From Blasia pusilla (lineage: Eukaryota): DNA of 64,000 nt. Both the position numbers and the translations under genes were made by a program. Location of the stretch: positions 38,192,001-38,256,000 of the forward strand of contig CM114271.1 in NCBI GenBank assembly GCA_050084515.1, read 5' to 3'. Positions 26,357 to 59,166 of this stretch are shown piece by piece; within the stretch, counting starts at the first letter, position 1; each line of letters starts with the position of its first letter. The notes beneath the pieces were generated by a model that was not told the DNA's origin, searched no databases, and saw only the letters and a program-made list of their open reading frames with translations.

Positions 26357-26364
26357 ACACTACA

Positions 26365-26582
26365 TGTCGTGCGCATACATATCGCTACACAACATACATG
26401 GCTATCACCGAATATACACACAAACATGCACGATCCCATGCTAACTCATAGAATATACACAACGAGACGAGAGATATCAAAATATCTCTAATTAAATTAA
26501 TGAAATCTCACATCACATCTCACACCAAGCTCTCCATGATGCGCATTCTCTTTCATGTCAAACCAAACCCACTATCATGTGG
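26365..26582 (-). mobile_element. Terminal fragment (end of A' followed by B') of the sister split-repeat family
   Basis: Reverse complement of ~58945-59166. Terminates in GCACGACA at 26365. Confidence 0.8.
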
Positions 26583-27473: not shown

Positions 27474-28495
27474 ACGTTTCCTGCCGAATCAGCATTTGTG
27501 AATCTCTGTAATTGAAAACTCGGAGAAGGTTCAAATTGAAGCCTGAATTGAATAGAGAATTTCACATATCGCATAATCCTCCTCACAACATCAAGGTGAG
27601 GTTTTCGAGGTGCTTGCATAAACTGGCTCACTAGGCCAACAACATAGCTCAAATCTGGTCTTATTATAGTTAGATAAATTAAACTTCCAACCATGCGCCT
27701 GTACATATTAGAATCTGCAAGCAACTCTCCTTCATCCACTCTTAGCTTCATGCTCTGGTCCAACGGTGTAGAGATTGGCTTACAAGCCGTCATACCATAT
27801 TTTGAAAGCATATGAAGAGCATATTGTCATTATAGTAACCATATGCTTTTTCCAACCTTGATAAACTTAATACCAAGGAAGTACTTGAGTTCTCCCAAGT
27901 CCTTCATATCAAATTCTGCTTGTAACTTAAGCTTGACTTGTTGTACCATTTCTTCAATACTCCCAGTAATCAGGAGGTCGTCAACATACAACACAATGAG
28001 AACCGTAAGATCTTGTCCTCTCAAGACATATAATGAGGAGTCAGAATCACATACCCTAAAATACAAATCTTGTAGGACGTATGTAATCTTGCCATACCAA
28101 GCTCTTGGAGCTTGTTTGAGCCCGTATAGAGCTTTCTTCAACCTGCATACGCGAAATGGAAACTTGGGATGCTCGTATCCAGGTGGTTGAGTCATACATG
28201 CCTCCTCCTGTAGATCTCCATTCAAGAAGCCATTCATGACGTCCATGTGATGTAATCTCCACTTCTTACTTATTGCAATTACAACCATTGTTCTCGTAGT
28301 CGCCATCTTTGCCACAAGGCTAAATATTTCCTCATAATTGATACCATATTGTTGTGCATAGCCCTTACCCACCAATCTCGCTTTGTATCTGTTTATTGTA
28401 CCATCTTGATTGCACTTGATTTTGTAAATCCATTTGCAACTAATAGCTTCCTTATCGGAAGGTATATCAACCACCTCCCATGTCTGTTGTGTTGA
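27474..28495 (-). mobile_element. Ty1/Copia RT to RNase H fragment
   Basis: WEVVDIPSDKEAISCKWIYKIK, RYKARLVGKGYAQ, LKKALYGLKQAPRAW, LYVDDLLITG, YRRMVGSLIYLT, FTNADSAG. Truncated on both sides by other elements. Confidence 0.95.
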
Positions 28496-31400: not shown

Positions 31401-34400
31401 GCCCTTTGGTCTGTGTAAGGGAGTTTATCAATGTGGTGAACGTTCACCACATTGATAAACTCCATTTTTCATGAGGAGATGGATGAGTACGCGATCATCT
31501 ATATTGATGATATACTCATCTATTTGAAGTCACAAGGAGAGCACGCTCGACATTTGAGGGCGGTGTTGTCAAAACTAAGGGCGAACAAGCTGTATGCTAA
31601 TATTGACAAGAGTGAGTTCGGGTTGCGCAAGATCAAGTTCTTGGGTCAGGTGGTTAGCGAAGATGGAGTTAGTCCGGATATGGACAAAGTGAAAGCCATC
31701 GCTGAGTGGAAACCGCCTTCCACGGTGAAGGGAATGAGGAGGTTTATCAGCGCGGTGCAGTTCTACCAAACCTATATGAGGAACTTTTTGGGTATTGTAA
31801 GACCTCTCAAGGATTGGACCGCAAAGTATGCTAACACGACTTGGACCCAAGAAGTGAATGACGCGTTCAACCGAGTCAAAGAGATCCTATCGCTGGAGCC
31901 GGTGCTAAAGCTGCCAGAGTTCGACAAGCCGTTCGAGGTGAATACGGATGCTAGTGACTTTGCGATTGCAGGAATGTTGGTAGAGGAAGGAAGACCTATA
32001 GCCTATGAGAGTAAGAAGCTCAGCGACACCGAGAGAAGGTGGTCCACTCATGAGAAAGAGTTGTTTGCGGTGGTCCATTGCTTGAGGAAGTGACATCACT
32101 ATTTGGGACTTCACATGACTGGAGTGTTCACTGATAACGTATCGCTCAAGTATTTTGAGACCCAGGATTGAGTAACACCAAAAAAACTAAGATGGCATGA
32201 TACCTTGGCGTTGATGAAAGTGGAACTAATCCACAAGCCAGGGAAGGATAATGTCATTCCAGAGGCATTGAGTCACAAGGATGAGGATATGCCATCAACA
32301 ACACAGGTCTTGAGAGCAATGTTCCCTAAGTAAACAGATCTGGAAAGAAGGATTTGTGAGGGATACATAAAAGACACCCAGGCAAGCAAGTACCTAAGGA
32401 AGTTGAAGCAGGGCGAGAAGGTGGCCAACATAAGTTTGAGACATGGTTTACTAAGGTTCAAGCAGAGCAGGATCTATGTGGGCGAAGGCAAACTACGAAC
32501 CAAGGTGTTAGTGGAATGTCATGATGGACCCTTGGCAGGACATAAAGGGGAGAAATCCACGCTGGCTGTTCTGGATAAAAGGTTCTTTTGGCCCAACATG
32601 AAAGAAGATGTTGCTTAGTATGTGAAGACTTGCGTGACCTGTCAGGCGAGCAGGGTTTCTTATGCAAAGAAACAAGGCTTGTTGCATCCCTTGCCGATTC
32701 CGGACGGGCCCTTGCATAGTGTGAGTATAGACTTCATAACGAGTCTTTCAGAGTTAAGGGATACAACGTTATACTTGTGATAGTTGATAGGTTCAGTAAG
32801 TTGGGGAGACTGGTGCCGACGGTGGATTCAGCGACGGCCTATACGACTTCCCAACTCTTCCTAGATAGTTGATGGTGCACGCACGAATTGCCAAGGAGTA
32901 TTATTTCAGATCGGGATCCAAAGTTTACCAGTGCCTTTTGGAAACACTTGTTCAAGAGGTTCAAGACCAAGCTGAGTTTCAGCAGGGCCTTCCATCTGCA
33001 GACGGATGGGCAAAAAATAAAGGTAAACTCCCTCGTGAACCAATATTTAAGGAATTACGTGAGCGCGGACCAGCGAGATTGGGTGAAGTGGTTGAGTATG
33101 GCGGAGTTCTGCAACAACTCCACCAAACATTCTGCAATTGGAGAATCTCCGTTCCTCTTGGCTTATGGACGTGAGCCAGAAGGGCCTCTTGACCTAGCCC
33201 TTTCGAAGGGTACTACATCAGCACCGACTCGACAAGCGACGGTAGAAGGTTTGTTAGCGGAAATGCGAGGTCGAGAGGAGCAAGCAAGGAGAAACCTTGA
33301 AAAGGCTCAACTGAGGTACATGAAGCATGCTAACAAAAGTAGGTGCCAAGTGAGATTCCAAGTTGGAGAACAAGTGTGGTTGAATGTGAAGAATCTCACT
33401 CTTCCGAAGGAGTTTTCCTCGAAGCTATCGGCCAAGTATGCTGGATCGTATGTGATTAAAGCAAACCCGTTTGAGGATGTGTATACATTGGAGCTACCAC
33501 AAGAGTTCAAGATACATCCCACTTTCCATGTGTCATTTTTGAAGAAGTATCTTCAGGATAATGAGTGTCCCGAGCAAAGACAGGCGTTGAAACCACAACC
33601 GGTAATCGTAAGCGAAGAACCAGAGTTTGAGGTGGAAACCATCTTGCGTGCAAGGCGTAGGGCCAACAAGTACAAGTACTTGGTCAAGTGGAAAGGCTAC
33701 CATATGAAAGAGGCAACTTGGATTACGGAGGCAGATCTCGAACACACGCAAGAGGTGTTGCAAGACTTCAAACGGTTGCAAGGGAAGCACATGGAGAAGC
33801 AAGAGACATGACTTGTGCCATAGGAAGCTTGGGCCAAAAGCCGTTGTAACTAGAGCAGGCTAGTGTTGCAACAAAGGAATGCATGAATTTGGAGATTCGA
33901 TGCGTGTGTTATTTGCAATTTGTCTTTGGTAGGGCATGGCAATGAATAGTTCTTCATACGCTTAGGATGTAAGTCAAGAGGATAAACAAGGAGTATTTGA
34001 GGCAAGAGCTGGTATTCGGATAAGTACCTAGAACATGACTAAATGCCGGGCAACTAGCACTTGGGCTTGCCCTAGCATCGGCGGGGCATATCACTTTGTC
34101 TTGGGGCTTGGTATGATCTCAGTCGTGAGTGTATGAGTGAACTTAGTAACGCGCCTAAGTTGAATACGAGAACGACCCAAGAGTAGTACGAATTGTGGAC
34201 CGTCTAAACATGTAAGGTGTTTACAAGTTGTGAGCATAAGAAGTTTTAGTTAGCAACCTTAGTTAGCTTATTTTATAGGTTAGATCGGTTGAGAATTGGT
34301 CCACGCTCATCGAAGAGGGGATGCTAAATGATGTTAAAAGTTGCAAGCGACAACCTAAAACTTAAGCCAAAAGAGGGATTGCGGGTTAGCTATCATAAGG

Positions 34401-35493
34401 CGATTCGATGTCAAGGGGTTGGCTTTCCACGATGACTTGACATTAAAAAGTTTGCATTGATGAGGGCATCAACCTCTAAAGAGGGGTGAGTGTCACGACC
34501 CTCATAACCAAACAAAAGCTAAGGGAAACATCCGAACTCTAGCGAGCTCACGCTAGGATGGTTTGCGTTTTGGGAGTTAAGGAAACACAAGGGCAAGACG
34601 TGAGCAAGGCGAGCATTTCAAGTGTTTCGTGTGTTGTGGTCGTGACCAAGAAACCGGAACCAAATGCGGTACTCAGACTTGAGAGAAGTCAAGTCTTGGA
34701 CGAGACGTGACCAAGGGGTGAAAACCGGACTTGAGATGTGGGCAGCGTTTGGGAGTTTCCGACTATACTTTTGACCATAAATTTGAGTCCCGAGAAGAGT
34801 TTGGGACAAATAAGCTAGTGTTGGAAAGCTTATGTCAAGCCAATTCCAACGCACCAAAGGCCTTTGCAAAGGCTTGCGTAGAGGTTGATATGGGCCAAAA
34901 CCAACTGTAAGAGGAGTCGGGTTGAGGGCCAAAAAGAGGGGCCCGGGTGGTCTTTCCAAAAGGTGGGGGGACCCCGGAGTTTCCCAGAAGTACTAGTAAG
35001 GGGGAAGGTCTCCAAGAGTGCTTGGGACTCTAACTCCACTTTGGGCACCGCAGGGCGACCCAAGGGCACAGAACGGATCGTGAGTTTGGTGTTGGGCTTC
35101 AAAACCCAAACCAAGTTCAATAGAGGGATTTCGGAGATCCCTACTGGATTCCAACTTGCGACTCATGTTTTTGAGTCTCAGTTAGGGGCTCATGTGAGGT
35201 TCGTTAGACAGTTGGGACCGCTAGGTGCTCAAACGCCGTTTCAAGTGCCTGGACTAACCAGAAAGTCTGTCCCAAGTCTTGGAAGGCTTGCGCGTATAGG
35301 GAACCTAGGAATGAGGGAAGGTTGAGCTTGATGAGATGCTGAGTTGAGGACTCGGTGGGTTGGAAGGCCGCTTGACCCAAAGCCAGACTAACATGAGTGC
35401 GTTTGGGTGCAGGTTGGTGATGAGAGCATGTTCTACTGAACGTACGCTTCCGCAACACTAAGATTGACGTTCAAGGAGAGTAGGTGGATGACA
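28500..35493 (+). mobile_element. Ty3/Gypsy chromovirus LTR retrotransposon, degenerate, 5' LTR truncated
   Basis: The 5' LTR remnant 28500-29121 matches the right part of the 3' LTR 34491-35493 (TGTCAC...GACA). PBS TGGTATCAGAGC (initiator tRNA-Met) at 29124 and PPT AAAGAGGGGTGAG at 34478-34490. Gag, PR (LVDTGASHSF), RT (YIDDILI), RH, IN and chromodomain (FEVETIL...YLVKWKGY...TW). Confidence 0.95.
29272..33811 (+). pseudogene. gag-pol of the chromovirus with in-frame stops and frameshifts
   Basis: ORF pieces at 29266, 29803, 30400, 31162, 31452, 32403 and 32888 in canonical Ty3 order. Confidence 0.92.
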
Positions 35494-38400
35494 CCTACTC
35501 TCTCAGATTACCCGTGGCCTCAGCATGTCATCCTCGACCTCTTGAGGTTGTCCTCCAGTAACTTCTAGATCTGGCCAATCTATCCTAAAAGTCATGACGG
35601 TTGTCGTGCGCATACACATCGCTACACAACATACATCGGTGTCACCGAACATATACACAAACACGCACGATCCAATGCTAAATCATGGAATATACACAAC
35701 AAGACGAGAGGTACCAAAATATCTCCAATCGCCCCCCTAGATGGTGGTTAGGTCCCTCTAACTCTAGATAGTCATCTATCCCTACCTACCATGACATACA
35801 TCTCTTGGACGCTTAGAGCAAAAAGATCAGGCGCTCATGTGGCCCCATCCTTAGTCGCCTTCTTATCATCCATATCAGAGACACAAATCGGAATGTACAA
35901 CTACCTACTCTATGTACATGTGGGATATATCCATCATCCCTGAAGAACCCTAGTGAGAGGTGGCGTCAGACATGGCATATGCCACCCTCTCGAACACCCA
36001 TCATAAACTAGCATGATGGATGCACCATGGGCGGAACCACACCATATACATCATAAGCATGCAAAAACTACTACTAAGCTCGAATAAACTATACCGTCAA
36101 TGTTAGGAAGATGACATGGTGCACAATTACGCACATGGTCCTTCCAAACCATACCATCGTGTCCCTCTAGTAAGAGAACACCAGATGGCAAAATCTCACG
36201 GACTCTCAAGATGGTGCGCCTTGCAGTCACAGTCAAGATCGTGCCGTCTATTGCAAGTAGACATAGTCTCTTTGATGAAACCTCCAGATATTAGGTCGAT
36301 ATCCACCTCCTCCAATAGTCGCATACCTCAACGTATCCCAATGCTGCACAATCACCAAGTTCTCAAGCGCCATGGGCATCACTCTCCGAAACAACTCAAC
36401 ACTCTAAGAACATACTCGCATCCATACATCAGGGTAATCAAAGTTCAACACCTCACCAACATCTTGATGAATGGCCGTAGGTAAATCCGGCTCTCGGCCA
36501 GAAAATAGCAAGTACGGTGAGAAAGCCGCTAAGGATGCCTGCCTGCTGAATCTGTATCCCATTGCCAACCACGGCAACTGAGGTCCCAATCTTCTAGGTG
36601 ACCTTTCTGCAAGCCATACTTGCGCAATCCTCTCTTCACCGTCTACACAAACCTCTTCTCTAGTCCATCCGCCTCAAGATGATCACGTGAAGTGGTGCGG
36701 TGGTCGATCAGCGTCTGATCACACAAGGCTTGAAACTCCCCGGGAAACTCCGTACCTTCGTCTATCAACACCTCAACTGGTGCACCATAATGACTCAACA
36801 CTCAATCTAGGAAGGCATATGCTACTCCCTCACTCGATTTTTCATTCAATGCAACCAACTCTATCCACTTCGAGAAGTGCTCGACCATCACCAACACATA
36901 ACGACTATGGCGCTCCGTCAAAGGTAAAGGTCTTGCAAAATCTAATTTCCATCTCTAACCTAAACCCATGATCAAAAGTGGATGCAAGTGTGGAGTTGGA
37001 GCATTGAACGATGCCCAGACCTGATCACAAACCATGCACCTGGCAACAAACTATTGAACGTCAGTCTCCATGCCTTGCCACCAATATTGTATTTAGAGCA
37101 AGCTATACGTCTGCTTCACTCCAAAATGATCCAACTCCTCGTGGGCATGATACACCAAACGTGCTCTTTGTGAAGGATGAGGCACTACACGCACTCTACC
37201 ATCCTCCCAAACTCGTAACACATATATGCCCTCCCACCGGAACCATCTAGCTCGTTGTAGGATCCGATCCTGCTCTATAGCACCCACTATGCTCGTGACG
37301 CTGCCAGTACGTAGGTACTCCAAGACTACTCCATCGTCATGAATATCTCGGCCACCTATCGCCTCCACACGACCTCTAGATCTAAGGACTCTCCATCAAA
37401 CCTCGCCATCGAAGCCTTAGCAATCTGGCTCTCCATAGCCAACAAGCCCAAATAGGCTGATGGGTGCTATCCTGGTACCAACTCCTCATCACTCTCTCCA
37501 TGCCATCGAGCTCCAGTCGCATCTCGTTGACTCGAGCATGGGTTACGGCTCAAACCATCTGCATCCTGGTGGAGTGTCCTAGGTCCATGCACCACCTGAA
37601 AATCAAACTCTTGCGATAACAAAGCCCACCCTATAAGCTTTCATGTAAGCTTGTCGGACTCTGTCAACCGCTTAAGTGGCTGATGATTAGTAATAATGGT
37701 AAAGGGATTGCCGAATAAATAACACCTGAAATGTGCGACAGCCCACACTACAACCAAGCACTCACCCTCATACGAGCTATACTTTGCCTCTACAGCATTG
37801 TTCGAGCACTAGCATAAGTCACCACGAACTCTCTACCCTCATCATCATGCTGGGTGAGCATGGCTCCAAGCCCCAACATGCTCCAATTAGTATGCAATTG
37901 GAAAGGATGCCGCCTGATTGATCTCCTCAATATAGGCGCGGATGTCAATCTATCCTTGAGCAGCTGAAATGCTCTCCCCTGCTCATTCCCCCAATGACAC
38001 TTACTTCGCTTTCTCTGATTCGGCTGTGCTTTCCAGGCGCGGCGAGCGCTCACCCCCCTAATCCCCCTTGGTCAACAAGGTCAGCGGCTTCGCAATCAAA
38101 CTGAAACCCTTGACGTACCATCGATAGAAGTTCGCCAATCCTATGAATGCATAAACTAGATTCACATCTATAGGGTGTGGAATGCATGAAATAGCCTCTA
38201 CCTTCATCTGCTGCACACTAAGGCCCCCTGGGTATATCGTATGATCCAAGTATTCAATCTATTCGTAGAAGAACTTGCACTTGCTTGGATGTAGCTTCAA
38301 CCCATGTAACTGCAATCGTCGAAACACCTCCTCCAAATGTCGCTCATGCTCCTCAACCGTGGCGCTAAATACTATGATATCATCAATATAACACATAGCA

Positions 38401-39150
38401 AAATCCAGACCTGCCAAGATCCCATCCACGATCCTCTGAAACTCAGCCGAGGCATTCTTTAACCCAAATGGTAAAAATCGTCATTGATACAAGCAATCCT
38501 TCCCGTGAGGATCGACGCCCCAAAATATCGTCTTCTACTTCTCCTCCAATCTGATAGGCAGCTGATGGTATGCTGCTAAAAAATCTAAAGAACTAAATAT
38601 CTTTGCATGCCCAATAGTATCAAAGATCTCCTCAAGGATGGGCATGGCATACCTATCGGTCTTCATCTTTCGATTGATAGGTTAGTAATTTCCACACATC
38701 CGCCTATCCGTCCAATTGCCATTCACATTATTCTTGGCTCCAACCAAGTCTTGGCTCCTACTCTGAATCAGATCCCTCTCCATATCATTGTACATGTAGG
38801 ATCTTTGGAAGATCGGCGTGTCACTTGACAACTCAATGCGGATCCTTGGACCCTTCAATATACCCAAATCATGCATGCTAAATGCGAAACACCTCCTATA
38901 ACTCCTAAGAAATTGACGTATCCTGCGCCGCTCTCCTGTTATCAACTTAGGGCCCATATCTCACTCCCAAGTCTCCATCGTGACTACGGTAGGACTCTCC
39001 GGTGCGGGTGTCGGTGGTTGCTATTGTGCAACCCTGTCTGGGACAATAGAACTCGGCTACTCCCCTGCAACCAATTGCAAACTCTGATCTCCATGTGCAA
39101 TGCCCGAAACCACGCTCGATGTTGTGGCTCCCTGATGTGCTAAGGTTCTC
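35494..39150 (-). mobile_element. Truncated sister element of the split-repeat Ty3 family: RT-RH-IN-PHD, PPT, B', junction, partial A'
   Basis: Translations match 49391-52500 (GPKLITGERRRIRQFLRSY, HPFQLHTNWS, QLPWLAMGYRFSRQASL, WKDHVRNCAPCHLP). PHD remnant ~35890-36050, PPT 35729-35738, B' 35602-35728, A' 35494-35599. Confidence 0.9.
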
Positions 39151-43519: not shown

Positions 43520-44160
43520 TAGAATAGTGCATATGGTCCCCAATTTACATCTATCTTGCAAAGTCTCATCCCAAATTAAGTTTAAAATGACCTTTTGGAC
43601 CCGACATAGATAACCTTGAATGAAAAAAATATCTTCAATTTTTTATCTTGTCCAACGTTTCCATCTTGAGCTAAAATTTAGCCCACATGGTCTCCAAGGT
43701 GCATCTAGCAGTCTTGCAAAGTTTCAATAAAAATGGAGTTGGGACCACAACCTCAAAAAGTGGCAAGTCCATTTTGGACCCGAACCAGTAGACCTTCTAT
43801 CAAAATAAGGTTTTTTTAATTTTCTTGTCAAAATTTATCATCTTGAGCTGAGATTTAGCCAACATGGTCCCTGAGGTCCATGTTCTACTCTTGCTAAGTT
43901 TAAGGAAAAATGGAGTTGTGAGCAAAAGCTCAAAAATTACTAAGTCCTTTGTGGACCCGAACCATTAAACCTTGAATGAAAAGAAGGTCTTTTGATTTTT
44001 CACCTTGTCTAACTTTCCCATCTTGAGCTGAAAGTTGGTCTACGTGGTTTCAACCAAAATGGAGTTGTGAGCAAAACCTCAAAAATATGTAAGTACGTTT
44101 TGGCCCCGAACCACTAAACCTTCAATGGAGTTGTGATCATGAGCTCAAAAATCACACTTA
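43520..44160. repeat. Degenerate tandem repeat, unit about 178 bp, about 3.5 copies
   Basis: TGGACCCGA core at ~43596, ~43775, ~43953 and a shortened unit at ~44101. CATCTTGAGCT and AAAATGGAGTTG recur with the same period. Confidence 0.85.
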
Positions 44161-44559: not shown

Positions 44560-45166
44560 GAGTATCCTGCATAGGTTAACTAGACTCGGTGGAATAATTC
44601 TGAACTCCTACTGGTGCAACAATCTGAGGATCATGGGTCGTGTTAGGAGAATTGCCGGGAAAATTGGCTTTGCTCGAAGTCCTCCGTTGTTGCTCTTCCT
44701 TGTGCTCTCCAGTCCAATGTTCCATTTCAACATCATCTTCATCTCTTCCAAGCCCCTCAGAATCAAAATGTTCAGTGTTGCCAATATGAGTATCCTCTCT
44801 CCCTTTGATGCCATGAATTCCAAATATCACATCCACCTCCTCTAGGTCCTCATCTTGCAAGTCAAGGTTATCTTCATGATTACCATCATGGTTTCTTGGA
44901 TGCAACCTAGATTCAGTGCCATCTTCTACTACTCTTCTAGCTTGTTATTGTCCATCCCTTTCTGAATAGTATTGCTCGTACAAGAGCACTTGTCTTGATT
45001 TCCGAGAAACACCCTTGTCTCCAAACCTTGAGTTTGTGTAGATGTAAACCAAATCCTTGGCACGCTCATTGGTCAATTTATTCCTATGCTTGTTGTGGAT
45101 GAGACCATAACTACTCCAATTTCTCGCCGCTGAAGAAGATGAAGCCACTTGTGCTTATATGGACTT
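44560..45166 (-). pseudogene. hAT transposase C-terminal part (dimerization domain and acidic tail)
   Basis: AQVASSSSAARNWSSYGLIHNKHRNKLTNERAKDLVYIYTN, the plant hAT dimerization motif. Continues the frame of 53264-53920. Confidence 0.9.
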
Positions 45167-45534
45167 TGTCATGACCATATGGATTATGTCGTAGAGTATA
45201 GTGTGCTAGTAGAGGCCATACCTTATGCAGGGCCGTAGTATCCAAGTAGAGATGCGGTTTCATACATAGGGTTGGGGGTTACTCAGTTGAGGGTGACTTT
45301 TCCAGTAGGGCCCGCTCTTAGGTTGGAGGATATAGTGTGGAGTGTACTCAAAGAACAGTTAGTTCTTTGAGTTGAGCCTGCTGCGTTGGGAGTTAGCCTT
45401 GGTAGTGAGTAGAGCTCTTGGCTGTGGTGGTTCCCGCAAGCTTCGACCTGGATTCTCCCATCGTGGAGTGGGTTTGGCTTGATTTTATGTGATTCTATAC
45501 GTGTTTTATGACAATAGGTCTTTCACGGATTTCA
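45167..45534 (+). repeat. Repeat A1 (368 bp)
   Basis: Same length as A2, with about 17 substitutions counted by eye, mostly transitions. Confidence 0.97.
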
Positions 45535-45546
45535 CTCAAAGAACTA
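45534..45546 (+). promoter_or_regulatory. Putative self-priming primer binding site
   Basis: ACTCAAAGAACTA at the A1 boundary is the exact reverse complement of TAGTTCTTTGAGT (45360-45372) inside A. No TGG-initiated tRNA-type PBS at the boundary. Confidence 0.75.
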
Positions 45547-45645
45547 GAGTAGATCGATGGTAGCTTCGATCGTGAATCAGTAGGATCTGGTTAGGGCTGA
45601 TTGTGTACTCAACCGTGGAGGTTAGGGCTGATTGTGTACTGAGCC

Positions 45646-47790
45646 GTGGCTTGGAAGGGGTTGTTTCAGCATTTGGAGGGACCACCCATGGACGATTACC
45701 ATGAGTTTAGGAAGGACCATGTTGCTGAGATCGAGGCGTGGAGACAATATTGGTCTCCAGGCTATGTGTCTATCACCCATGGTGGTATTGGTAGTAGTAC
45801 TCCTACTATGCCAGCCAGCCCGACGTTGAGTGGTACGAGTACGAGCTGGAGTGGGGGTACCAGTGGAGGTACCCAAGAAGGTACCATTGGGGGTACTAGT
45901 GGAGGTACTAATGCCCCACCATTGTTCACCCCGGTTGCAGAGTTCTTCAAGAGGTTGAAGAAGAGCTATCAGGGAGTGAAGACAGAGAAGTTGAGGAGTC
46001 TTCAGGAATTTGAGCGAAAGACTGGTGAGAATCTTTGTGAGGCATACACTCGTATGCGATGCTTGATTTCAGTTACCCAGGGTGTGATTGAGGCTATGGG
46101 AGTCCGGTTTTGGTATGGGATCTTGGATAGAGAGTTGCGCTGTAGGGTACATGATGCTACTCTTATGAGTGATGATTCATCCACATTGACTCATTTGTTT
46201 GCTCTATCTGAGAAGATTGAGCTTAACATGGTGGAGGAGAGAGTGGTGACATCCGCATTCAGTAGGGATACAATTACTACTTCTCGTGTTCAGCAGTCCA
46301 CCTCCCAGTCTCGTAGTAGTGGTGGTGGTAGTAGTAGTGGGAGTCGTGGGGGTTACACACGACCTCAGTCAGGTCCTAGAGGGACACTTGTGTAGAGACC
46401 ATTGCCTTCATTTGCTGCCCCGCAGTAAGGACAATCATGTTAGACATGTGGAGGTGATCATGTTAGGAGATTTTGTCCCCAAGAGGATGGGAGATGGACT
46501 TTGGAGGATGGGCCTCAGTCGGCCCCAACTCAGTGTGATCATTGCGGAAGACCAGGTCATCCTCGAGAGCATTGCTTTGATCTTCATCCAGAGTTGAGAT
46601 CATGACGCGGCTGTGGTGGAGTAGCTCCAAGAGGCCGAGGTGGTAGAGGTGGTAGAGGTGGACCAGTGGTTGGAGAGCCTACGGTGGCTACCCCTACCCC
46701 TACAACAGAGTCGCCTATGGTGCCGAGATTGAGCTTGATTGGAGCAGGAGTTGGCTACTATGGCTGGTATCCAACATAGAGCAGGTTCGGGAGCAGGGGC
46801 TTCCACCTCTTATGGAGGGGATGATCTCTCTTATATGGCGAGTGCAGCACAGGTTGAGGCATCAGATGCAGTTATGAGAGGAGCCACTCGAGCATCAGAG
46901 CCATGTGGTGCTACTATGGAGTTGGACCCATAGAGGGGTGAGGCTGGGAGGCAGGCTAGGCTTCCCCAATCATTCTTGTTGTCTGAGGTGCTTAGGAATC
47001 CATCCATGGTTCCTACGCAGCCTATTGAGCCTATAGTGGGGACTGAGGCATCTACATCACGTGTAGTAGACACGGATGCAGCATCCAGTGCAGTATTGCG
47101 GATGGCAACTTCAGTGTTGGGATTCCCATTGTTTTCGGCCACGGAGCTGATGGCTTTAGGAGTTGACTTAGCTCATGTATTTTAGCTAGCAGCCACGTTG
47201 TGTGAACGTGGGGGTGTTACTGCTACACGTGCTGAGGTGGATGAGGGTGTTGCGGTGGAGCAACCCTCTCTGTCACATGTAGCATTGAGTACCAGTGCTA
47301 CTTGGCAAGTAGCAGCGGCGAAGATGGATGCATTACCAGCCCGGCCAGCCATTGATCGTGAGAGGCTTACACCTGGTGTATGTATGTTGGACAACCAGAG
47401 TGGGATATTCCGATTGGTGAGTCCTACATGATAGCTGTATAGACCAGATAGAGTCTTGTTGGACTCTGGTGCCCAACCTTTGATGTTGGGAAAGGCGGCA
47501 TGTATTGATTTGGGTATTCGGAGGTCAGAGCTTGAGCCTTGCCCATTCTAGATTCAAACATCACTTGGAGGAGCCAATGATACGTCTCAATTCATGATAC
47601 GGGAGAAGTTGTCTGTACAGTTGAGACCAGATCATGCGATTGATAGCTCCCGGTTGGGAGTACCTGCAGTGGTCACATCAGCGGAGTCGTATGATGTACT
47701 AGTTGGAGGAGCAGTATTGTACCCGATGGGTTTTCAGATGGATTACTAGACTGAGATAACGTCTTATAGACCTAGTTGGCAGTCCGGGGA
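45646..47790 (+). pseudogene. Gag (with zinc knuckles) and aspartic protease of the split-repeat element
   Basis: Gag-like ORF 45646-46395, knuckle CDHCGRPGHPREHC (~46534-46575), protease VLLDSGAQPLML (~47453-47488). In-frame stops. Confidence 0.85.
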
Positions 47791-48179
47791 TGGATGTATG
47801 AGCCAGGTTCCTGTGAGATTTATTTATGGGGCTCGACCAGGAGGGTCTTCCCCAACGGTGTTAGCATCTGTGGCTGGTTTTAGTGGAGTAGTCACTTGGC
47901 CAGGAGACTTTTTGGAGGGTAATCTTTTTGCTATGGATTCTCCTGTGCATGAGGAGGTAGAGGAGATCCCTAGTTTTGCAGCAGTGGCATCCTCATCGTT
48001 GGATGTGCCACTTTGGAGTTCAGGCGGTGTACTACGGCAAGAGGCTGATCGCCTATTGCAGGAGGCTTGGTGTGAGGCTGTTATACCTCACGAGGAAGAG
48101 GAGGCCCCACGGCGTACTCCTACTTCTGGTCTAGTTGGGTTATCCCCTTTGGATACTACACCCATTGTATGGCAGTATC

Positions 48180-49140
48180 TGCCGGAGGGCATTTGTGTGT
48201 TAGATCTCTTTGGTGGGATTAGCACTGGTTTGGCTGCAGTGTGGCAGGCCGGTATTCCTGTGCGGAGATACGTGTATGTGGAGCGAGATGAGACGGCCCA
48301 GAGAGTCTCATCCCGACATATCGGTCAGTTGATGCGGAGATATCCTGAGTTGTTTCCGCCATCAGCTATTCGTGGGTACCAACGTGCTTTGCCGTCACAC
48401 ATTGCATTGTTGGGGGCGCAGGACCTTAAGAGGGTTGGTCCTGTGGATTTGGTGATTGCTAGATGGCCATGTCAGGGTCATACACGTGTAGGTCGTGGTG
48501 AGGGATTACACGACCCTAGATCTCGATTGTTTTGGGAGATGTTACGGATGTTACGACATCTTCAGGTTCATCAGGCACGTGCTCCAGCTTACATTCTGGA
48601 GAATGTTCCATTATTGGATGACACTCGGATCCGGATGATGGCGAGTGTTCATGAGGTGCGGTCTTGGATTGGACCTGCGGTGTTGTTGGATGCACCGCGA
48701 GTCGGCTCGCGTGCACATCGTCCACGCTTGTGGTGGACAAACTTGTTGCCTAGGGAGGTTCTACGTCAAGCATATGATGCAGTGTAGCGGGATCCTTGCC
48801 TTACAGTGGATAGTATCTTGGATATTGGGCGAATTTCTCAACTGGTGAGGGTTATTGATTGGTCATCCATGGTAGTGGTGAACCGTGTGGGCCAACCTAG
48901 GATGGCACTATCCACATTTGTGAGTTTTCCCTCGTCACATGCCTACAGGGAAGGTGGTTCTGGGCTTGTATGGGATTCTCATGTGCGACAGTTGGTGGAG
49001 CCTAACGCTGACGAGAGAGAGTGTGGGATGGGATTTGCTACTAGTGTGACAGCGGTTGCTTCCATTTCTGAGGCTTCACGACGTCATGTGTTGGGTCAGG
49101 CCATGGACCTAAATTGTTTGACTTGGATTTTGAGTCTTGG
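48180..49140 (+). pseudogene. C5 cytosine DNA methyltransferase domain (DNMT3/DRM-like) within pol
   Basis: Motif I VLDLFGGISTG, II VYVERDE, IV DLVIARWPCQ, VI YILENV, VIII AHRPRLWWTN, IX ERECGMGF, X RRHVLGQAMD. One in-frame stop at 48785-48787. Confidence 0.92.
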
Positions 49141-49390
49141 TATGGCCGAGCAGCGTTGACTTCGGACTTTGTCTGTGGGTCTTCCATCCCTTGTGATGAG
49201 CTCGATGGCTACCGGGACGGTAGAGGCATCGGATGGGGGTAAGGAGAGTAGTATTTTGCATCCTTGGAGTAAATGGGATGTAATGGCTGGGCATGTGGAG
49301 TTGGTTGCTCATGCTGGTGGAGGAGTTATTTGCTCAGATGATGGTATAGCTAAGGGTGTACCATCTTGTGAGGGGGTTGCGTAGCAACCA

Positions 49391-52300
49391 ATGGCGTCGT
49401 CCTCTCCCTCTAGTGTGCCAGTGGAAGAGACTTGGGAGCCATTACTTGGGCCCAAGCTTACGGGAGATGAGAAACGACGCTTGACACAATTCCTACGTGC
49501 TTATAGGAGTTTTTTTGCCTTTAGCATGAAGGAGTTGGGTGCTTTTGTTGGGCCTGGTATACGGATTGATTTGGCTGGTGATATGCCAATCTTTCGTCGT
49601 CCCTACCGATATAGTGATATGGAGAGGGACCTGATTCAGAGTAGGACGTTGGACCTTTTGGAGGCTGGATTAGTGGAGTTGTCGCATGGAGAGTATGCAT
49701 CAGCCACAGTCATGCCTGCTAAAAAGGATGTGCATGGCAACTACACGGATAGACGGATGTGTGGAGATTACCGTCCTATCAATCGACAGACCAAGGCTGA
49801 TAGGTATGCCATGCCTACACCTGAGGAGATCTTTGATGTGGTGGGACATGCAAAGATTTTTTGTACTTTGGATCTTCGGGTAGGATACCATCAGTTGTCG
49901 ATTCGAGAGAGTGACAAGGCCAAGACAACATTTTGGGGTGTCAACTCTCATGGAAAGGATTGTTTGTACGAGTGGAAATTCTTACCCTTTGGGTTGAAGA
50001 ATGCACCTGCCGAGTTTCAGAGAGTGATGGACAGGATCCTAGCAGGGTTGGATTTTGTTCGGTGTAACATTGATGATATCTTGGTGTTCAGTAACACGGT
50101 GGAGGAGCATCAAATACATTTGCAGATTATGTTTGAGCGGTTGAAAGCTCATGGTCTATGTTTGCATCAAGGAAAGTGTAAGTTCTTCCATGAAGATGTT
50201 GAGTATTTGGGTCATGTGATCTATCTAGGTGGTTTGGGAGTTCAGCAAGCAAAGATGGAGGCTATTGCACTTATTCCTTGTCCGATAGATGTGAGTAGAG
50301 TTCAGGCATTCATGGGATTGGTAAACTACTATCGGAGGTATGTGAAGGGATTTAGTGCTATGGCAAAGCCTTTGAACCAATTTTTGAAATCAGATGAGGA
50401 GTGACACTGGGGAGATGATCACGAGAGAGCTTTTGTGGAGCTCAAGGCCCAGTTGGTTGCTGTGCCTATCTTGAGGAGACCTATCAGATGGCGCCCATTT
50501 CAGTTACACACTGATTGGAGTAGGTTGGGACTTCGAGCGGTGTTGACACAACATTATGATGAGCACATGGAGTTTGTGGTGGCCTATGCAAGTCGTTCGA
50601 ATAATGTAGCAGAGTTGCGCTACAGTTCATATGAGGGAGAGTGCTTGGCAGTAGTGTGGGCTATGGCACACTTTAGGTGTTACTTGTTTGGCACACAGTT
50701 TACCCTTGTTACTGATCACCAGCCGCTCAAGTGGTTGATGGAGTCTGACAAGCTTACAGGGAAGCTTGCACGGTGGGCTCTTATCTTACAGGAGTATGAC
50801 TTCCAGGTGGTACATAGACTTGGAGTTGCCAACCTTGATGCTGATGGGTTGAGTAGGAACCCATATACTAGCCAAGAGGATGCAACTGGGGCTAGATGGC
50901 ATGGCGAGGTGATGAGGAGATGGTGCCAGGTTTGCATGCATCTGCCTTTTTATGTTGGTTAGGGGTGGACTCTAGTATGGAGGACCACATGACATCTTAC
51001 TCTAGTCAGAGGGTAGATGGTCAGCCTTTAGATCCTAAGGTTGGAGATGGTGGTATGGATTAGCATGATATTCATGATGATGCGTTGGTGTTGGAGTTCC
51101 TACGGACCAGTAGGGTGCCAGGCATAGTGAGTGCCAAGGAACGAGACCGTGTTCTTCAACGTGCTAAGAGGTATGAATTGAGGAAACACATATTCTCTGT
51201 GTGTGGGAGGATGGTAGAGTACAAGTAGTTCCGCATTTGGCTCAGAGAGAGTGCATTGTGCGACATGCCCATGAGGAGTTGGGACATTTTGGGGTAAAGC
51301 GTACGTATAGCTTACTCCTTGGTCAGTATTGGTGGCGTGGCATGCATACTAAGGTGTAGCAGTTGGTGTCACGTTGTATGGTTTGTGACCGGGTGAGGGC
51401 ATCATTCAATGCCCCTACACCACAGTTACATCCCTTGCCTATTATGGGGTTGGGTTAGCGTTGGAGTGTGGACTTTGCGGCACCGTTACCGTTGATTGTA
51501 CGACATATCGATATGTGTTGGTGATGGTGGAGCACTTCTCCAAGGGGATTGAGTTGGTGGCATTACCTGACAAGGCAAGTGAGGGAATGGCGTATGCATT
51601 TCTTGATAGAGTGCTTAGTCATTTTGGTGCACCAACTGAAGTACTGACCGACCAGGGTACAAAGTTTCAAGGTGAGTTTTAGGTCTTGTGTAACAAGGCG
51701 TTGATTGATCATCGGACCACGTCTCGAGATCATTCAGAGGCGGATGGTTTGGCTGAGCATGTGGTTCAGACGGTGAAGAGGGCATTGCGCAAGTATGGCC
51801 TACAGAAGGTGCATCTTGGAGACTGGGATATTCAGTTGCCATGGTTAGCCATGGGGTATAGGTTCAGTCGCCAAGCATCCTTGGCTTCCTTCTCACCTTA
51901 TTTTTTGTTATCGGCCGAGATCCGGACTTGCGGCAGTAGTCGTTGGAAGTCTAGTGAGGTGGTGAAACTTGATGACCCAGAGATGTGGATGAGAGTGTGT
52001 TCTCAGCAGGCATAGCTCTTTCAGAGAGTTATGCCAACAGCCTTTGAGAATCTTGCCATTTCCCAACACAGGGATATATTGCGGTATGCAACCATTCGGG
52101 GTGGAGGTTATCGACCATCGATTTGTAGGTTCCATGTGGGGGACTATGTCTATTTGCAGCAGATTATACCAACAACGTTGGATGTGACGGCAGGCCGCAC
52201 TATTTTACGAGTGCGCGAGGTGTTAGCTTCTGGAGTTCTCATGTTGGAGGGTCGTGATGGAGTTTTTTGGAAGGACCATGTGCGTAATTGTGCACCATGT

Positions 52301-52500
52301 CATCTTCCAAATGTGGATGGTACTATTGACCCAAGCTTAGCCATGATACGTGCTAGCTTGAGGTGCATGTTGTGTGGGTTTGCTGGTAACGCAACCCGTA
52401 TGTTGGTGTGTGATCGGTGTTCTAGGGGTTGACAAATGATGTGTTTGACTCCACGTATGGATGTTGTTCCTACTGGAAGGTAGGTTTGTCCTCGATGTAC
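49391..52500 (+). pseudogene. RT, RNase H, DDE integrase and C-terminal PHD finger
   Basis: RMCGDYRPIN, LPFGLKNAP, NIDDILVFS; FQLHTDWS, SYEGECLAVVW, LVTDHQPL; HEELGH..CxxC; VLTDQGTKF, DGLAEHVVQTVK; CMLCG...MLVCDRCSRG*QMMCLTP....VP.G.*VCPRC. Confidence 0.95.
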
Positions 52501-52667
52501 TTAGGAGAGGTAGATGACTTGATCTTTGCATGATATGGATTACAGATGTGCGACTAACGATGGGGCAACCTAGCACCCGACCTTCTGATTCGTGCATCCA
52601 AGAAGGTGTATAGCATGTAGTAGATGTATAGGACTACTTGGGAGTTAGAGGGACCTAACCGCCAGTT

Positions 52668-52677
52668 AGGGGGGCGA
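52668..52677 (+). promoter_or_regulatory. Polypurine tract
   Basis: AGGGGGGCGA followed by GT and the TG start of B1. Conserved in the relatives at 35729-35738 and ~2686. Confidence 0.8.
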
Positions 52678-52679
52678 GT

Positions 52680-53259
52680 TGTGGTACACTTGTGTTTATG
52701 GATGCTCTCGTCTATGTTATGTATGTATGTGAGTATGGTATATCAGCGATGTATGTTGTATGACGATGTGGATTCGCAAGACAGTTGTCATGACCATACG
52801 GATTATGTCGTTGAGTATAGTGTGCTGGTAGAGGCCATATCTTATGTAGGGCCGTAGTGTCCAGGTAGAGATGTGGTTTCATACATAGGGTTGGGGGTTA
52901 CTCAGTTGAGGGTGACTTTTCCAGTAGGGCCCGCTCTTAGGTTGGAGTATATAGTGTGGAGTGCACTCAAAGAACAGTTAGTTCTTTGAGTTGAGCCTGT
53001 TGCGTTGGGAGTTAGCCTTGGTAGTGAGTAGAGCTCTTGGCTGTGGTGGTTCCCGCAAGCTTCGACCTGGATTCTACCATCCTGGAGTGGGTTTGGCTCG
53101 ATTTTATGTGATTCTATACGTGTTGTATGATAGTAGGTCTTTCACGGATTTCAGTTGTGGTACACTTGTGTTTGTGGATGCTCTCGTCTATGTTATGTAT
53201 GTATATGAGTATGGTATGTCAGCGATGTATGTTGTATGACGATGTGGATTCGCACGACA
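52680..53259 (+). repeat. B1-GT-A2-GT-B2 terminal block
   Basis: B1 and B2 are 104 bp each with 4 differences. A2 is 368 bp. Both internal junctions read CA-GT-TG. Confidence 0.97.
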
Positions 53260-53263
53260 ACTT

Positions 53264-53922: not shown

Positions 53923-55164
53923 TGTCGTGTCGAGAGCCTTTCTTCGAGTAAGGGCAAGCCTTCTAGCTGCGGTAGATATGGCCGATGCAAGGTAAACTCT
54001 TTATGTATACTCTCCATTCTCTTACGACACGTATCACAAATGGAAGTGCCGAGGCGATCACTTCTTCGTAACATCGGACCCCAAAATTCCGAACTAAAAA
54101 GTTCCTATAAACTACTTTACGCTTGCACACGAGGAAGATAGCACAACTAGTGTTAAACCCTACTTAAGCAGCCCTATGGACATCCATGGATCGCTATATA
54201 AGGACATACAAAATACAATCCCATATCCTTCCATATATGACGATAGGAAGAATCACCGGAGTTGGAGATTGCATGACCTGGTTCATGAACGCCTCCCCAA
54301 AGTGATAAACTAAATAGCGAGTGAACCATTGCCTATCTACAAAGAGTACCTTGACATGATAAGGATTGAGGAAAGGAAAATCGGGCACAACTTGTGCTCC
54401 ACCCCAATCCATGTTTGGAAGACATTCTCTACTATCCTCAAGAATGGGCTTTGGCGGAATTATTCTCCCAAGAAGGATAATCTACTCTCATTGGGGGCCA
54501 AGACAATAACAAGCCAATACATTCATTATTTTAATATGACTAAACTCCTCTAAGATGACAAGCCTCTCATCTCCACACACACCACACTCTAGGAACCTCT
54601 TCAGGAATAGACCATGATCAAGTTACTCTCCCAAGAGGGATGATCCACTCTCATTGGAAGAGCAAGCAATCCCAAAACTATACACTCAAGAGTGATACGA
54701 GAGACTCAAGATGTGAAATAGAAGGTGATGAACCCTTGAAGGTCCCTCCTCTTTATATACTCACAAGAAAACCACAAGAGTACGAAATGGAGCTAATCTT
54801 ATCTTGTGCCACATGGCTTCCTCTCAAGATTTATCCAATCACATTTTGGCACAAGTAGATTTCTTTTTATCTCTTCCAAAATATCTTCTTTTACCCACTT
54901 GATATTTTCCAAATTATCCCAATTAACCTAGCCACCAACCAAGACTACTTTTGCTTTTCATTAAAGCACCAAGCTCACTACTTTACTTTTATAAAGTCAT
55001 CTTTTATTTATTACCTTTTTTCCTAAAGTTGGGCCCGCATAAAAGAGACACCATAAAGAGGTTTAAACATGGGAATTTTTTTTTCCTAAGCTAATTTACT
55101 TAATACTTATAAAATTCTATCTAATACTTAATGAGGAAGGAGTTTACACACTGGCTTTACGACA
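53923..55164. mobile_element. Solo LTR-like repeat, family C, copy 3
   Basis: TGTCGTG...TTACGACA, colinear with 25074-26356. Confidence 0.8.
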
Positions 55165-55430
55165 ACGCACCTGATGTGCACTCGTCACCATGCGAGACCT
55201 TGAATCGCCCAAAATCGGCACATTCTCCATAATGTATGATGGAGAATGGAACTGAGGCTCTTGTAAGTGTCGCAAGATCCGCATCATCTCCCAAAACAAC
55301 CTGAACCGAGAGTCAGCTAACCCGCTACCTCGTCCAACACTTGATTGGCCCTGACACGACCAACCTGCAATAACCAAGTCTATGGTCCCTACCCGCTGCA
55401 AGTCTTGCGCCCCTAGCAATGAAATGTCCC
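55165..55430 (-). pseudogene. Second, diverged retroelement-type DNA methyltransferase fragment (motifs IV-VI)
   Basis: LGAQDLQRVGTIDLVIAGWSCQG...RLFWEMMRILRHLQ...SYIMENV aligns without gaps to ~48410-48660. Confidence 0.9.
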
Positions 55431-56399
55431 TCAGTAGGGAACTCCATCAATCCAACCATCCTTTACTCTCACCGGCCACATTTTTTTGTCTAAGTTATCC
55501 TTATTCTAGTTCTGGTCTGGCTACGAGACGCTCATGACTTACACAAAAAGCAATATGCTTCTTGTTGGGGCTGACTCCATTTGGAACTTTGTGTACAAAA
55601 TAGACTACCTAGTGCACTTTACAAAGTTTCATCCTCTACATAGTGGAAGGAGTTTTTTTACAATAACCTGTCATTTCACGTTGCCTTTAGATCTGAATAA
55701 GAGATGTTGTTCATAAAGTCTTATTCTATTGTTGATGAGATTAAGAAGCATGTTGTAGCCAATTTATGGAGTGAAGTTCATGTTGGAGAAATTGTATTCA
55801 AAGTCCTCGATCTCATCCAACCATTTCTACACTTGGACATAACACCAGATATATACTATGTAGAGCAAGATCAAGTTGGTGCTCCAAGCTTGAAGATCAA
55901 TTTCATTCCCCTAGACCGCAACTTGGATTTTGAGAAGCGCAACTCTTTTTGGGATATCCGATCTCAATACCTACAAGCATGGCCCTACCAACCACAATCC
56001 GCATATCTACATAGCGAAAATTACTCCAACTATAGTCATCGCCTTTTGTACTCTAGCACCTCAAAAAAGACTAGCTACATGCTATGAGGATATTGTGTGC
56101 TATGCACATAACCTTGTCCACATGACCCTTACTTTCAAATCTTAGGTTGTCATAACAATGTATTAAAATTTTGATGTTCTGTTGTACGTACTTGCTATTC
56201 TCTCCTCCTCTCTTTTCTAGGATTGTATATGAAGTTGAGGTTCTCTCCTCACCATCTATTTCTTAGATCCTGTTTCCACAAGTACTTTGCTATGCAACAT
56301 GAATTCATTGCTCCAAATAAGGTCAAGCAATAAAATGACTTCTTGTTGTTTGCATTTACTACTTGTGTTTTTGCATATTTATTAACTCTCTAGGCATAC

Positions 56400-58517: not shown

Positions 58518-59166
58518 TGTCACGTCTGCTAGGATAGATCGACGAGATCTAGTAGAGCTTCTTTGGAGATTTTAGAGGACAAGCTCAAGAGGTTGAGGAT
58601 AACCTACTGAAGCCACGTGTGACTTGCAAGAGCAGGTTTTCCCTTCGTTTTGGCTCATTTGAAGCCATATTGAGAAAACTTACTATTTCAAAGTTACCAT
58701 TTTTGGTATAGTTGACTTTCCACTTTGGGAAGTGGCCCTTGACCCACTACAGCAAGTCAAGAGCCAAGGAGATGACCTTCAAGCATAGGTTACCGTGGAG
58801 AGGCTAGGACTTGGGAGAGGGAAGGGGGTATATCTCCAAGAGAGAGAGCTTGAGAGCTTATTCTCTCTTTGTTGAACCTCTTGGCACGAGGCGGCCGAGC
58901 TATGATCCTCCGTGCCTTGTGTGTGTAATCCAAGCCTCTCATTAGGAGAGTGGGTTTGGTTTGACATGAGAGAGAATGTATACCATGGAGAGCTTGGTGT
59001 GAGACCTTGTTGTTATGATGGAGAGATTTGATCAATTTATTAGAGATATTTTGGTACTTATCGTCTCGTTGTGTGTATTCCGTGAGTTAGCATGGGATCC
59101 TGTATGTTTGTGTGTATGTTTGGTTACAACGATGTATGTTGTATAGCAATGTGTATGCGTACGACA
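58518..59166 (+). mobile_element. Solo A'-B' unit of the sister split-repeat family
   Basis: Starts TGTCACG and matches the reverse complement of 35494-35599 (A'). ~59039-59166 matches the reverse complement of 35602-35728 (B'). Ends TACGACA. Confidence 0.85.

Follow-up and report, generated by a model that had tools for sequence, protein, structure and literature searches.

A Dnmt3-bearing Ty3/gypsy lineage with split direct repeats in a liverwort and a putative integrase site inside its long terminal repeat

A 64,000-nucleotide stretch of the Blasia pusilla genome (contig CM114271.1 of assembly GCA_050084515.1, positions 38,192,001 to 38,256,000 of the forward strand; hereafter the window) contains a retrotransposon copy, E1, in which two direct repeats, A and B, are split in the order A1-internal region-B1-A2-B2 and enclosed by a 4-bp target site duplication (TSD). 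E1 is, with near certainty, a decayed member of a Viridiplantae Ty3/gypsy lineage that encodes gag, protease (PR), a Dnmt3-like DNA methyltransferase (DNMT), reverse transcriptase (RT), RNase H (RH), a DDE integrase (IN) and a PHD finger, in this order. Independent copies from other assemblies repeat the same order of A and B, so that chance is no issue for the architecture. The reading that fits best is an integrase that cuts an internal, palindromic attachment site (att) in an intermediate with joined long terminal repeats (LTRs).

Repeat layout, coding content and target site of E1

Repeat finding, BLAST and base-by-base reading delimit E1 and its repeats as follows (coordinates of the window).

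45167-53259, + strand: element E1, a decayed Gypsy-Dnmt copy
45163-45166, no strand: 5' copy of the TSD, ACTT (sequence and empty-site reconstruction)
45167-45534, + strand: repeat A1, starting TGTCATG; holds the transcription start region, R and U5 (RNA reads begin within it)
45534-45546, + strand: self-priming primer binding site (PBS), ACTCAAAGAACTA; adjoins the last base of A1 or overlaps it; no tRNA-type TGG start
52668-52677, + strand: polypurine tract (PPT), AGGGGGGCGA, G-rich, directly 5' of B1
52678-52783, + strand: repeat B1, ending CAAGACA (repeat finding, BLAST)
52777-52792, + strand: internal joint of inverted ends, CAAGACA-GT-TGTCATG, a putative att; spacer at 52784-52785
52786-53153, + strand: repeat A2 (repeat finding, BLAST)
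53154-53259, + strand: repeat B2, fused to the end of A2 without extra bases and ending CACGACA
53260-53263, no strand: 3' copy of the TSD, ACTT

The complete order is TSD(ACTT)-A1-PBS-gag/PR/DNMT/RT/RH/IN/PHD-PPT-B1-GT-A2-B2-TSD(ACTT), with TGTCATG at the start of the element and CACGACA at its end. With boundaries marked by slashes, the left side reads ACTT/TGTCATG...(A1)...GGATTTCA/CTCAAAGAAC..., and the right side reads ...AGGGGGGCGA/GTTGTGG...(B1)...CAAGACA-GT-TGTCATG...(A2)...GGATTTCA/GTTGTGG...(B2)...CACGACA/ACTT. An earlier note, made from the sequence alone, had proposed this order together with its coordinates, the TSD and the internal joint at 52777-52792, all of which are borne out by repeat finding, BLAST and a re-reading of the bases. 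The note also placed a GT spacer at two joints. The one between B1 and A2 is genuine, whereas the GT between A2 and B2 also stands behind the PPT before B1 and hence represents the first two bases of B, which leaves the B1/A2 joint as the only place in E1 with a true 2-nt spacer. Both copies of A are 368 nt long and share 95.4% identity over 367 nt (BLAST; 17 differences, 12 of them transitions); for the copies of B, 106 nt each, the tools give 96.3% over 107 nt, with 4 differences.

The element was inserted as a single unit with a 4-bp TSD. Upon in silico excision of E1 together with one ACTT, a minus-strand frame becomes continuous over the joint (...RSVAKSI*AQVASSSSAARNW...), and the TSD and this restored frame agree with the previous claim that the whole unit arrived in one event. 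The target itself reads as a decayed hAT-like pseudogene whose frame is restored on removal of E1. The proposal that a hAT reading frame had been interrupted holds as far as the frame runs across the joint, but in the empty-site reconstruction a stop codon follows 9 nt beyond it, and the Dimer_Tnp_hAT match of the downstream half stays below threshold in Pfam (E 0.0064, 16.7 bits against a cut-off of 21.4; profile positions 44-83 of 84).

The internal region of E1 contains the following coding features.

45643-46395, + strand: gag-like open reading frame (ORF), assigned by position and by-eye likeness to the N-terminal part of protein P0019; no Pfam match
46934-47185, + strand: probable protease region with the by-eye motif VVDTDAASS; no Pfam match in E1, weak gag-asp_proteas match in the relative L035
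47750-49159, + strand: C5 cytosine DNA methyltransferase, Dnmt3-like, with one in-frame stop at 48785-48787 (PF00145, E 1.9e-7 for ORF 47750-48787)
49385-50404, + strand: reverse transcriptase (RVT_1, E 2.5e-28)
50405-50962, + strand: RNase H (RT_RNaseH, E 3.7e-35)
51389-52432, + strand: DDE integrase core with in-frame stops and, by eye, the start of the PHD finger (rve, E 1.2e-8 for ORF 51389-51682)

Several in-frame stops indicate that this copy is dead. Its methyltransferase, with motifs conserved in the DNMT alignment, sits between protease and RT, and the better preserved relative L035 displays the order PR (weak)-DNMT-RT-RH-H2C2-rve-PHD in Pfam, with an intact D,D35E integrase and a supported PHD finger (E 2.9e-10). 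In E1, the coding region closes at 52370-52520 with a PHD-finger-like pattern of Cys residues in which, on visual reading, TGA and TAG stand in place of two Trp codons. The earlier account of the element's content had noticed neither the DNMT domain nor the PHD finger nor that the PBS is of the self-priming type.

With RVT_1, RT_RNaseH and rve in order, a DDE integrase, a TSD and TG..CA ends, E1 carries the characters of Ty3/gypsy elements except for two complete terminal LTRs in the integrated copy. From DIRS elements it has the split repeats A1-int-B1-A2-B2, but neither the tyrosine recombinase nor the absence of a TSD. Two features of KnitGypsy-Dnmt3, an algal element discussed below, are present, namely a C5-DNMT inside the pol polyprotein and A-int-B-A-B repeats alongside Gypsy domains. 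What speaks for integration by a tyrosine recombinase, or by host recombination, instead of the DDE integrase is that the other known carriers of split direct repeats are tyrosine-recombinase elements. We regard such integration as very improbable: Pfam finds no Phage_integrase match in any of the 30 ORFs of at least 70 aa on both strands of E1 or in the 8 ORFs of L035, the insertions have 4-bp TSDs and TG..CA ends, and the D,D35E triad of L035 is intact. The assignment to a DDE enzyme made in the earlier note stands, supported by the rve match.

Recurrence of the split-repeat order

To see whether the lineage as a whole shares this order, metagenome contigs were scanned with the DNMT alignment. 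The scan yielded 344 pattern matches; 218 held up on confirmation, and the analysis covers the best 80 of these. They comprise clade I (L001-L029), with 49-73% DNMT identity to E1, and clade II (L030-L080), with 36-41%. A and B were placed by self-comparison and mapping, and loci with common flanks were counted once.

All 27 independent 5' ends (E1, 9 of clade I and 17 of clade II) consist of flank/A-PBS, and B is upstream in none of them; L024 and L025, in which the match to A lacks the first 79 nt, were left out of this count. Twelve independent 3' ends have the form PPT-B-A-B/flank (E1, L029, L021, L031, L035, L041, L043, L044, L051, L065, L073 and a second copy on L064), whereas the locus of L007 stops after B-A. 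The earlier note had named a majority of ordinary BA...BA copies as fatal to its interpretation, and the copies examined do not show this. Within each copy, the A pair and the B pair have diverged about equally, indicating that both pairs were presumably identical at insertion.

Six loci (L057, L069, L077, L016, L030 and L039) are seen solely in a single-B form, A-int-B. The single-B contigs L012 and L059 have the same flanks as the B-A-B contigs L021 and L051, respectively, and because these loci occur both ways, the single-B form can come from assembly collapse or from recombination between B1 and B2. Single-B copies could be B1/B2 recombinants, assembly collapse or direct insertions from a one-LTR substrate. 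Both flanks are available in three cases among L057, L069/L070 and L077, and in two of these the 4-bp TSD is perfect (TTGA and AATT). At L058 (14326-14900), an inverted copy of B lies 5.3 kb upstream, and this locus is probably rearranged.

Both flanks are available at 12 loci. Perfect 4-bp TSDs are present at 8 of these (ACTT, AAGG, TGTG, GGTC, CCAA, AACC, TTGA and AATT, with TGTG counted as perfect if the second base of the element is taken as changed), 3 of 4 bases match at L043 and L073, and L031 and L077 have none. A one-off rearrangement or misassembly of an ordinary LTR element would have some prior plausibility, and the pairs L012/L021 and L059/L051 show that the tail can be altered by assembly or recombination. 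However, the same order is found in 12 B-A-B tails and 27 5' ends, from several assemblies and from two clades with only 36-41% identity in the DNMT, and TSDs sit exactly at the A-start and B-end boundaries. Recurrence across independent copies excludes this explanation, to which we assign practically no weight.

Integrated ends, priming and the proposed route of integration

In both clades, the integrated element starts with TGTCATG... and finishes with ...CACGACA. At the internal B/A joint, the same type of ends meets as CA-NN-TG with a spacer of exactly 2 nt in 14 of 14 copies (GC in 5, GT in 4, AC in 4 and AT in 1). Relative to GC, with which the joint would form the perfect palindrome GACAGCTGTC, every other spacer differs by transitions alone. 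The core of this palindrome, CAG/CTG, is a CHG methylation context, and its two CHG cytosines have decayed by transition in 9 of the 14 copies. In clade II, the outer ends of the LTR are PPT/ATACATG... and ...TTCAAT, without TG and CA, which makes the internal ends the sole integrase-type ends of this clade. The A2/B2 joint is a direct fusion of the RT-defined end of A to the PPT-defined start of B. Its length differs in one of 12 copies (L041, 2 nt shorter), and a few others carry single substitutions.

A PPT with a G run adjoins B1 in all 12 B-A-B copies, and CTCAAAGAAC follows A1 directly in 11 of 13 clade I loci. These positions show that the LTR, as defined by reverse transcription, is B+A, with the integrated ends at the start of A and the end of B, in line with what the earlier note had deduced from the PPT at B1 and the PBS at A1. 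No second PPT or PBS, from which priming might set the integrated ends, was seen by eye at the start of A or the end of B.

The PBS appears to be served by the element's own transcript, and the candidate primer lies in a hairpin of A.

45346-45372, + strand: hairpin in A whose 3' arm, 45360-45372, complements the PBS (putative self-primer)

Complementarity between the PBS and this site within A, about 170 nt upstream, extends over 13 nt in E1 (45534-45546 with 45360-45372) and 17 nt in L029. Clade II uses a wholly different priming pair, AATTCTAGAAAAACT and AGTTTTTCTAGAATT, the latter about 125 nt upstream of the end of A. The pairing sequences of the two clades (ACTCAAAGAAC.. versus AATTCTAGAAAAACT) consequently covary, a pattern that we read as the signature of Tf1-type self-priming. 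In four tested copies, no more than 1 in 2000 shuffled versions of A gave a complementarity of the observed length, and exact PBS complements of at least 10 nt are present in 7 of 11 clade I and 4 of 6 clade II copies. A tRNA-type PBS was also considered. There is no TGG start after A1, and a TGGTAGC 26 nt downstream was discarded as a candidate after the self-complementary PBS had come to light.

Transcription was followed with raw RNA-seq reads deposited under the label of the window's organism (two runs), mapped on E1. The reads have a single orientation and extend from inside A1 to inside A2/B2, with a coverage of 10-190 inside versus 0.1-0.9 in the flanks, and coverage has all but vanished before B2 ends. 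One of the runs shows 10 molecules starting at 45328, where the adjacent depth is 34. The majority of reads are no more than 90-99% similar to E1, indicating that the expressed copies are relatives of E1. An RNA joint from 45479 to 52815 (4 and 6 reads in the two runs) connects A position 313 to A position 30 and skips B; it could stem from a rearranged relative or from a joined-LTR transcript. DNA contigs mapped on E1 are too short to bridge A or B, and their apparent A1/A2 and B1/B2 joints are repeat ambiguities.

These features can be arranged in a single scheme. Transcription would begin inside A1, and minus-strand DNA would be primed in the manner of Tf1, by pairing of the RNA's own 5' region with the PBS adjoining A1, while plus-strand DNA would start at the PPT adjoining B1. 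Reverse transcription would then produce an ordinary linear cDNA, BA-int-BA, with B+A as its LTR. The integrase would ignore the outer LTR ends and use the inverted ends, ..CACGACA and TGTCATG.., that lie back to back within the LTR, 2 bp apart. Fusion of the two LTRs by their ends, in a 2-LTR circle or a tandem-LTR molecule, would create the precise A/B joint. Nicking after CA on both strands of the PBS-proximal B/A joint would next release a permuted linear A-int-B-A-B with recessed CA-3'OH ends and 2-nt 5' overhangs, which we infer to be a normal strand-transfer substrate, and this molecule would be inserted with a 4-bp TSD. The steps up to the BA-int-BA cDNA (transcription and priming) are better supported than the later integration steps. 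For the use of the internal att, LTR joining, PBS-proximal cleavage and insertion with a 4-bp TSD as one scheme, we see the chances as evenly balanced.

Several observations weigh against this scheme. No circular or tandem-LTR DNA was observed, and the short contigs cannot show such molecules. A ligated 2-LTR circle has two identical B/A joints and so predicts the additional form A-B-A-PBS-int-PPT-B at the same frequency as the observed one; it is seen at 0 of 27 5' ends, and the scheme leaves the one-sided permutation unexplained. The precision of the A2/B2 joint, with 11 of 12 copies lacking a length change, would fit a templated process as well as end joining. The rearranged locus L058 ends in B-A/unrelated sequence, without B2. 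As to priming, 4 of 11 clade I and 2 of 6 clade II copies, all decayed, lack an exact PBS complement of at least 10 nt. The pile of read starts at 45328 is 32 nt upstream of the proposed primer stretch (45360), and in the reads, which mostly derive from relatives, A1 and A2 are indistinguishable. The idea of the earlier note that a circle is opened at its internal joint is supported by the inverted 2-nt joint in 14 of 14 copies and by the clade II outer ends without TG and CA, but no circle was observed and A-B-A-int-B is absent. The asymmetry requires either that the PBS-proximal joint is marked or that a directional, templated route operates, by extra strand transfers or DIRS-like bridging.

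The first of these templated routes is an extra template switch during reverse transcription, for instance a jump of the plus strand from the end of A to the start of B, which would build a linear A-int-B-A-B (or BA-int-BAB) with no closed circle and an integrase acting near the ends. Such a directional process would account more naturally than a symmetric circle for a permutation that is strictly one-sided (alternative forms 0 of 27) and for an A2/B2 joint that is nearly invariant in length (11 of 12). On the other hand, every standard PBS/PPT strand-transfer route that we worked through on paper gave BA-int-BA, and non-homologous end-to-end switching by RT usually adds untemplated bases. Removal of the left B, at 106-180 bp from the end, would moreover again need cleavage at an internal B/A joint. 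We consider this route unlikely, at perhaps half the plausibility of the joined-LTR scheme or somewhat less.

The second templated route is a DIRS-like regeneration of ends, in which the B1-A2 joint bridges and completes the cDNA ends, as the internal complementary region (ICR) does in DIRS-1, and the new joint with its strand breaks is used by the DDE integrase. This would explain why just one of two equivalent joints is used, and the repeat layout equals that of PAT/Ngaro-type DIRS elements as described in passages of PMC8969392 and PMC7192593. It is opposed by the start of B at the PPT and the end of A at the PBS in every copy, which point to ordinary LTR-type synthesis, and by the near-zero RNA coverage before the end of B2, with no sign there of a minus-strand start at the RNA 3' end. 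The DIRS-1 model itself has been only partly tested. Altogether, we judge this route improbable, and less probable than the extra template switch.

Cleavage of the internal att in a joined-LTR intermediate remains our preferred reading. A stronger version of it would make the joined-LTR form, which counts as a dead end in other systems, the obligatory productive intermediate, with the DDE integrase acting like a restriction enzyme on the palindromic att GACA-GC-TGTC and the PBS-proximal copy being marked. We advance this version only tentatively, with about one chance in three in its favor. If true, the split-direct-repeat life style has arisen or persists independently of tyrosine recombinases, and the lineage is a mechanistic bridge between LTR and DIRS/PAT/Ngaro retrotransposons.

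Neighboring repeats, relatives and known systems

Further debris of this and other repeat families surrounds E1.

35494-39005, - strand: second copy, E2, about 70% identical; 3' part only (RT, RH, IN, PPT, B1' and the start of A2')
26365-26576, - strand: A' end and B2' of the E2 family, ending GCGCACGACA, 89% identical to B1'
58946-59166, + strand: E2-family fragment with the end of A and B, then unrelated sequence
28500-35493, + strand: ordinary LTR retrotransposon inside A2' of E2, with 622-nt LTRs 93% identical and the PBS TGGTATCAGAGC
55147-55446, - strand: isolated DNA_methylase fragment (Pfam E 4.8e-10), 63% identical to the DNMT of E1
25074-26358, 26855-27475 and 53923-55156, - strand: three copies of a repeat of about 0.6-1.3 kb, 81-92% identical, with a common end point
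43591-44127: tandem repeat with a period of about 177 bp, units roughly 70-78% identical, just outside the hAT-like region
15578-16168, + strand: gag-like stretch, 30% identical to the gag ORF of E1
23706-24142: integrase-region fragment with 73% DNA identity to 36956-37403

The window is crowded with the remains of related retrotransposons. In E2, B1' (35729 to 35602) is followed by the spacer AC and by the start of A2', CGTCATGAC, from 35599 on, where the unrelated LTR element at 28500-35493 cuts it off. B1' and B2' of the E2 family are thereby separated by a nested element without a matching TSD, and it is uncertain whether 26365-26576 and 35494-39005 are one copy. The 10 nt that close the 5' LTR of the nested element, GCGCACGACA, recur at the B end of the E2 family, and a matching TSD was not seen. 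The DNA_methylase fragment adjoins the end of the repeat at 53923-55156 and hence represents a remnant of another Gypsy-Dnmt copy. One copy of the three-copy repeat is continuous with the hAT-like ORF interrupted by E1, and the repeat is for this reason likely to represent the 5' portion of a family of hAT-like transposons.

Among named proteins, the E1 DNMT ORF comes closest to those of Marchantia polymorpha (70% identity), Calypogeia fissa (64%) and Sphagnum fallax (51%). A Sphagnum magellanicum protein matches a clade II DNMT at 93% identity. Further afield, DNMT matches with L035 as query come from Closterium, Chromochloris, Monoraphidium and Klebsormidium nitens, the last being KFL_000540020 with 34% identity (E 1.5e-28) to the DNMT region. 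In the RT search, the closest sequences (46-56% identity) are other green-algal or environmental polyproteins bearing a DNMT or PHD; the top bit scores came from long multi-copy arthropod gene models. Judged by these similarities, the lineage thus appears to span green algae to bryophytes. Three distant proteins (P0023, P0025 and P0026, 32-40% identical in the DNMT) have the order RT-RH-DNMT-IN-PHD, with the methyltransferase between RNase H and integrase, which points to a domain move or a second acquisition.

E1 belongs, as a liverwort representative, to the Gypsy-Dnmt3 elements with DIRS-type repeats, a combination already noted in an alga in 2018, in a single sentence. De Mendoza et al. 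described KnitGypsy-Dnmt3 of Klebsormidium nitens as Gypsy domains with DIRS-type repeats (PMC5890265, legend to Fig. 4c), which contradicts the statement of the earlier note that no Ty3 lineage with this structure had been described. Like E1, the algal element has a Dnmt3-type DNMT within a Gypsy-type pol, its Dnmt3 domains lying inside the Gypsy element, and the alga's copies carry CHG methylation (PMC5890265, passages on this element). It differs in its algal host, the E1 DNMT being closest to Marchantia, Calypogeia and Sphagnum. The passages of PMC5890265 on KnitGypsy-Dnmt3 give no TSD, att, PBS/PPT or mechanism and do not mention a PHD finger, and a full-text literature search found no other paper that names KnitGypsy. 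Nor did our literature searches return a report of consistent 4-bp TSDs, a conserved palindromic att with a 2-nt spacer inside the LTR, or non-canonical outer LTR ends in such elements. The same holds for a covarying self-priming PBS, a PHD finger, a bryophyte distribution and strict asymmetry; the supplements of PMC5890265 and PMC6317226 may bear on domain order and PBS tables. The Gypsy-Dnmt family is recurrent in liverwort and moss sequence and transcribed in the window's organism, and standard LTR finders will mis-delimit or miss such elements. With its own Dnmt3-like methyltransferase, a PHD finger and a CHG core in the att, the lineage links the mechanics of transposition with DNA methylation.

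TOC1 is a DIRS-order element with split direct repeats. The order A1-internal-B1-A2-B2 is likewise that of PAT-like and Ngaro elements (passages of PMC8969392 and PMC7192593), and the passages that we consulted on such repeats, these two articles among them, describe no DDE-integrase element with split direct repeats. DIRS-order elements have a tyrosine recombinase and no TSDs, in contrast to the DDE integrase, missing tyrosine recombinase and 4-bp TSDs of the Gypsy-Dnmt lineage. Split direct repeats alone therefore do not signal integration by a tyrosine recombinase.

The PBS resembles that of Tf1/sushi and Tcn1 elements in having no tRNA match and in being complementary to a 5' part of the RNA that the element itself produces. 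Self-priming has been predicted by Neumann et al. (2019) for the plant Tcn1 clade, which occurs in mosses and algae (PMC6317226, passages on this clade). Those elements have ordinary LTRs and chromodomains, whereas the Gypsy-Dnmt lineage has split repeats and, in L035, a PHD finger at the place of the chromodomain. A Tf1-type transcript starts at the first base of the primer stretch, whereas the RNA start seen here, in reads mostly from relatives, is about 32 nt upstream.

For the use of abutted ends with a short spacer on a circular intermediate, the DDE enzymes of IS3/IS911 offer a precedent. These are bacterial DNA transposons without reverse transcription, in which the junction is made by transposase action and not by joining of LTRs. 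For the integrases of prototype foamy virus (PFV) and human immunodeficiency virus type 1 (HIV-1), cleavage of 2-LTR circles at their palindromic LTR-LTR junction, with 3'-processed ends as the product, is reported in passages of PMC1180852 and PMC1905944. As in the step proposed here, a DDE integrase acts on abutted inverted ends in a circle and leaves processed 3' ends. In retroviruses, however, the circle junction itself forms the palindrome and the route counts as accessory or is under debate, whereas in the Gypsy-Dnmt lineage the palindrome lies within each LTR and the route would be obligatory. The lineage hence provides a natural test of whether a DDE integrase works from an internal palindromic att on a joined-LTR intermediate, an activity that in retroviruses is a debated side reaction.

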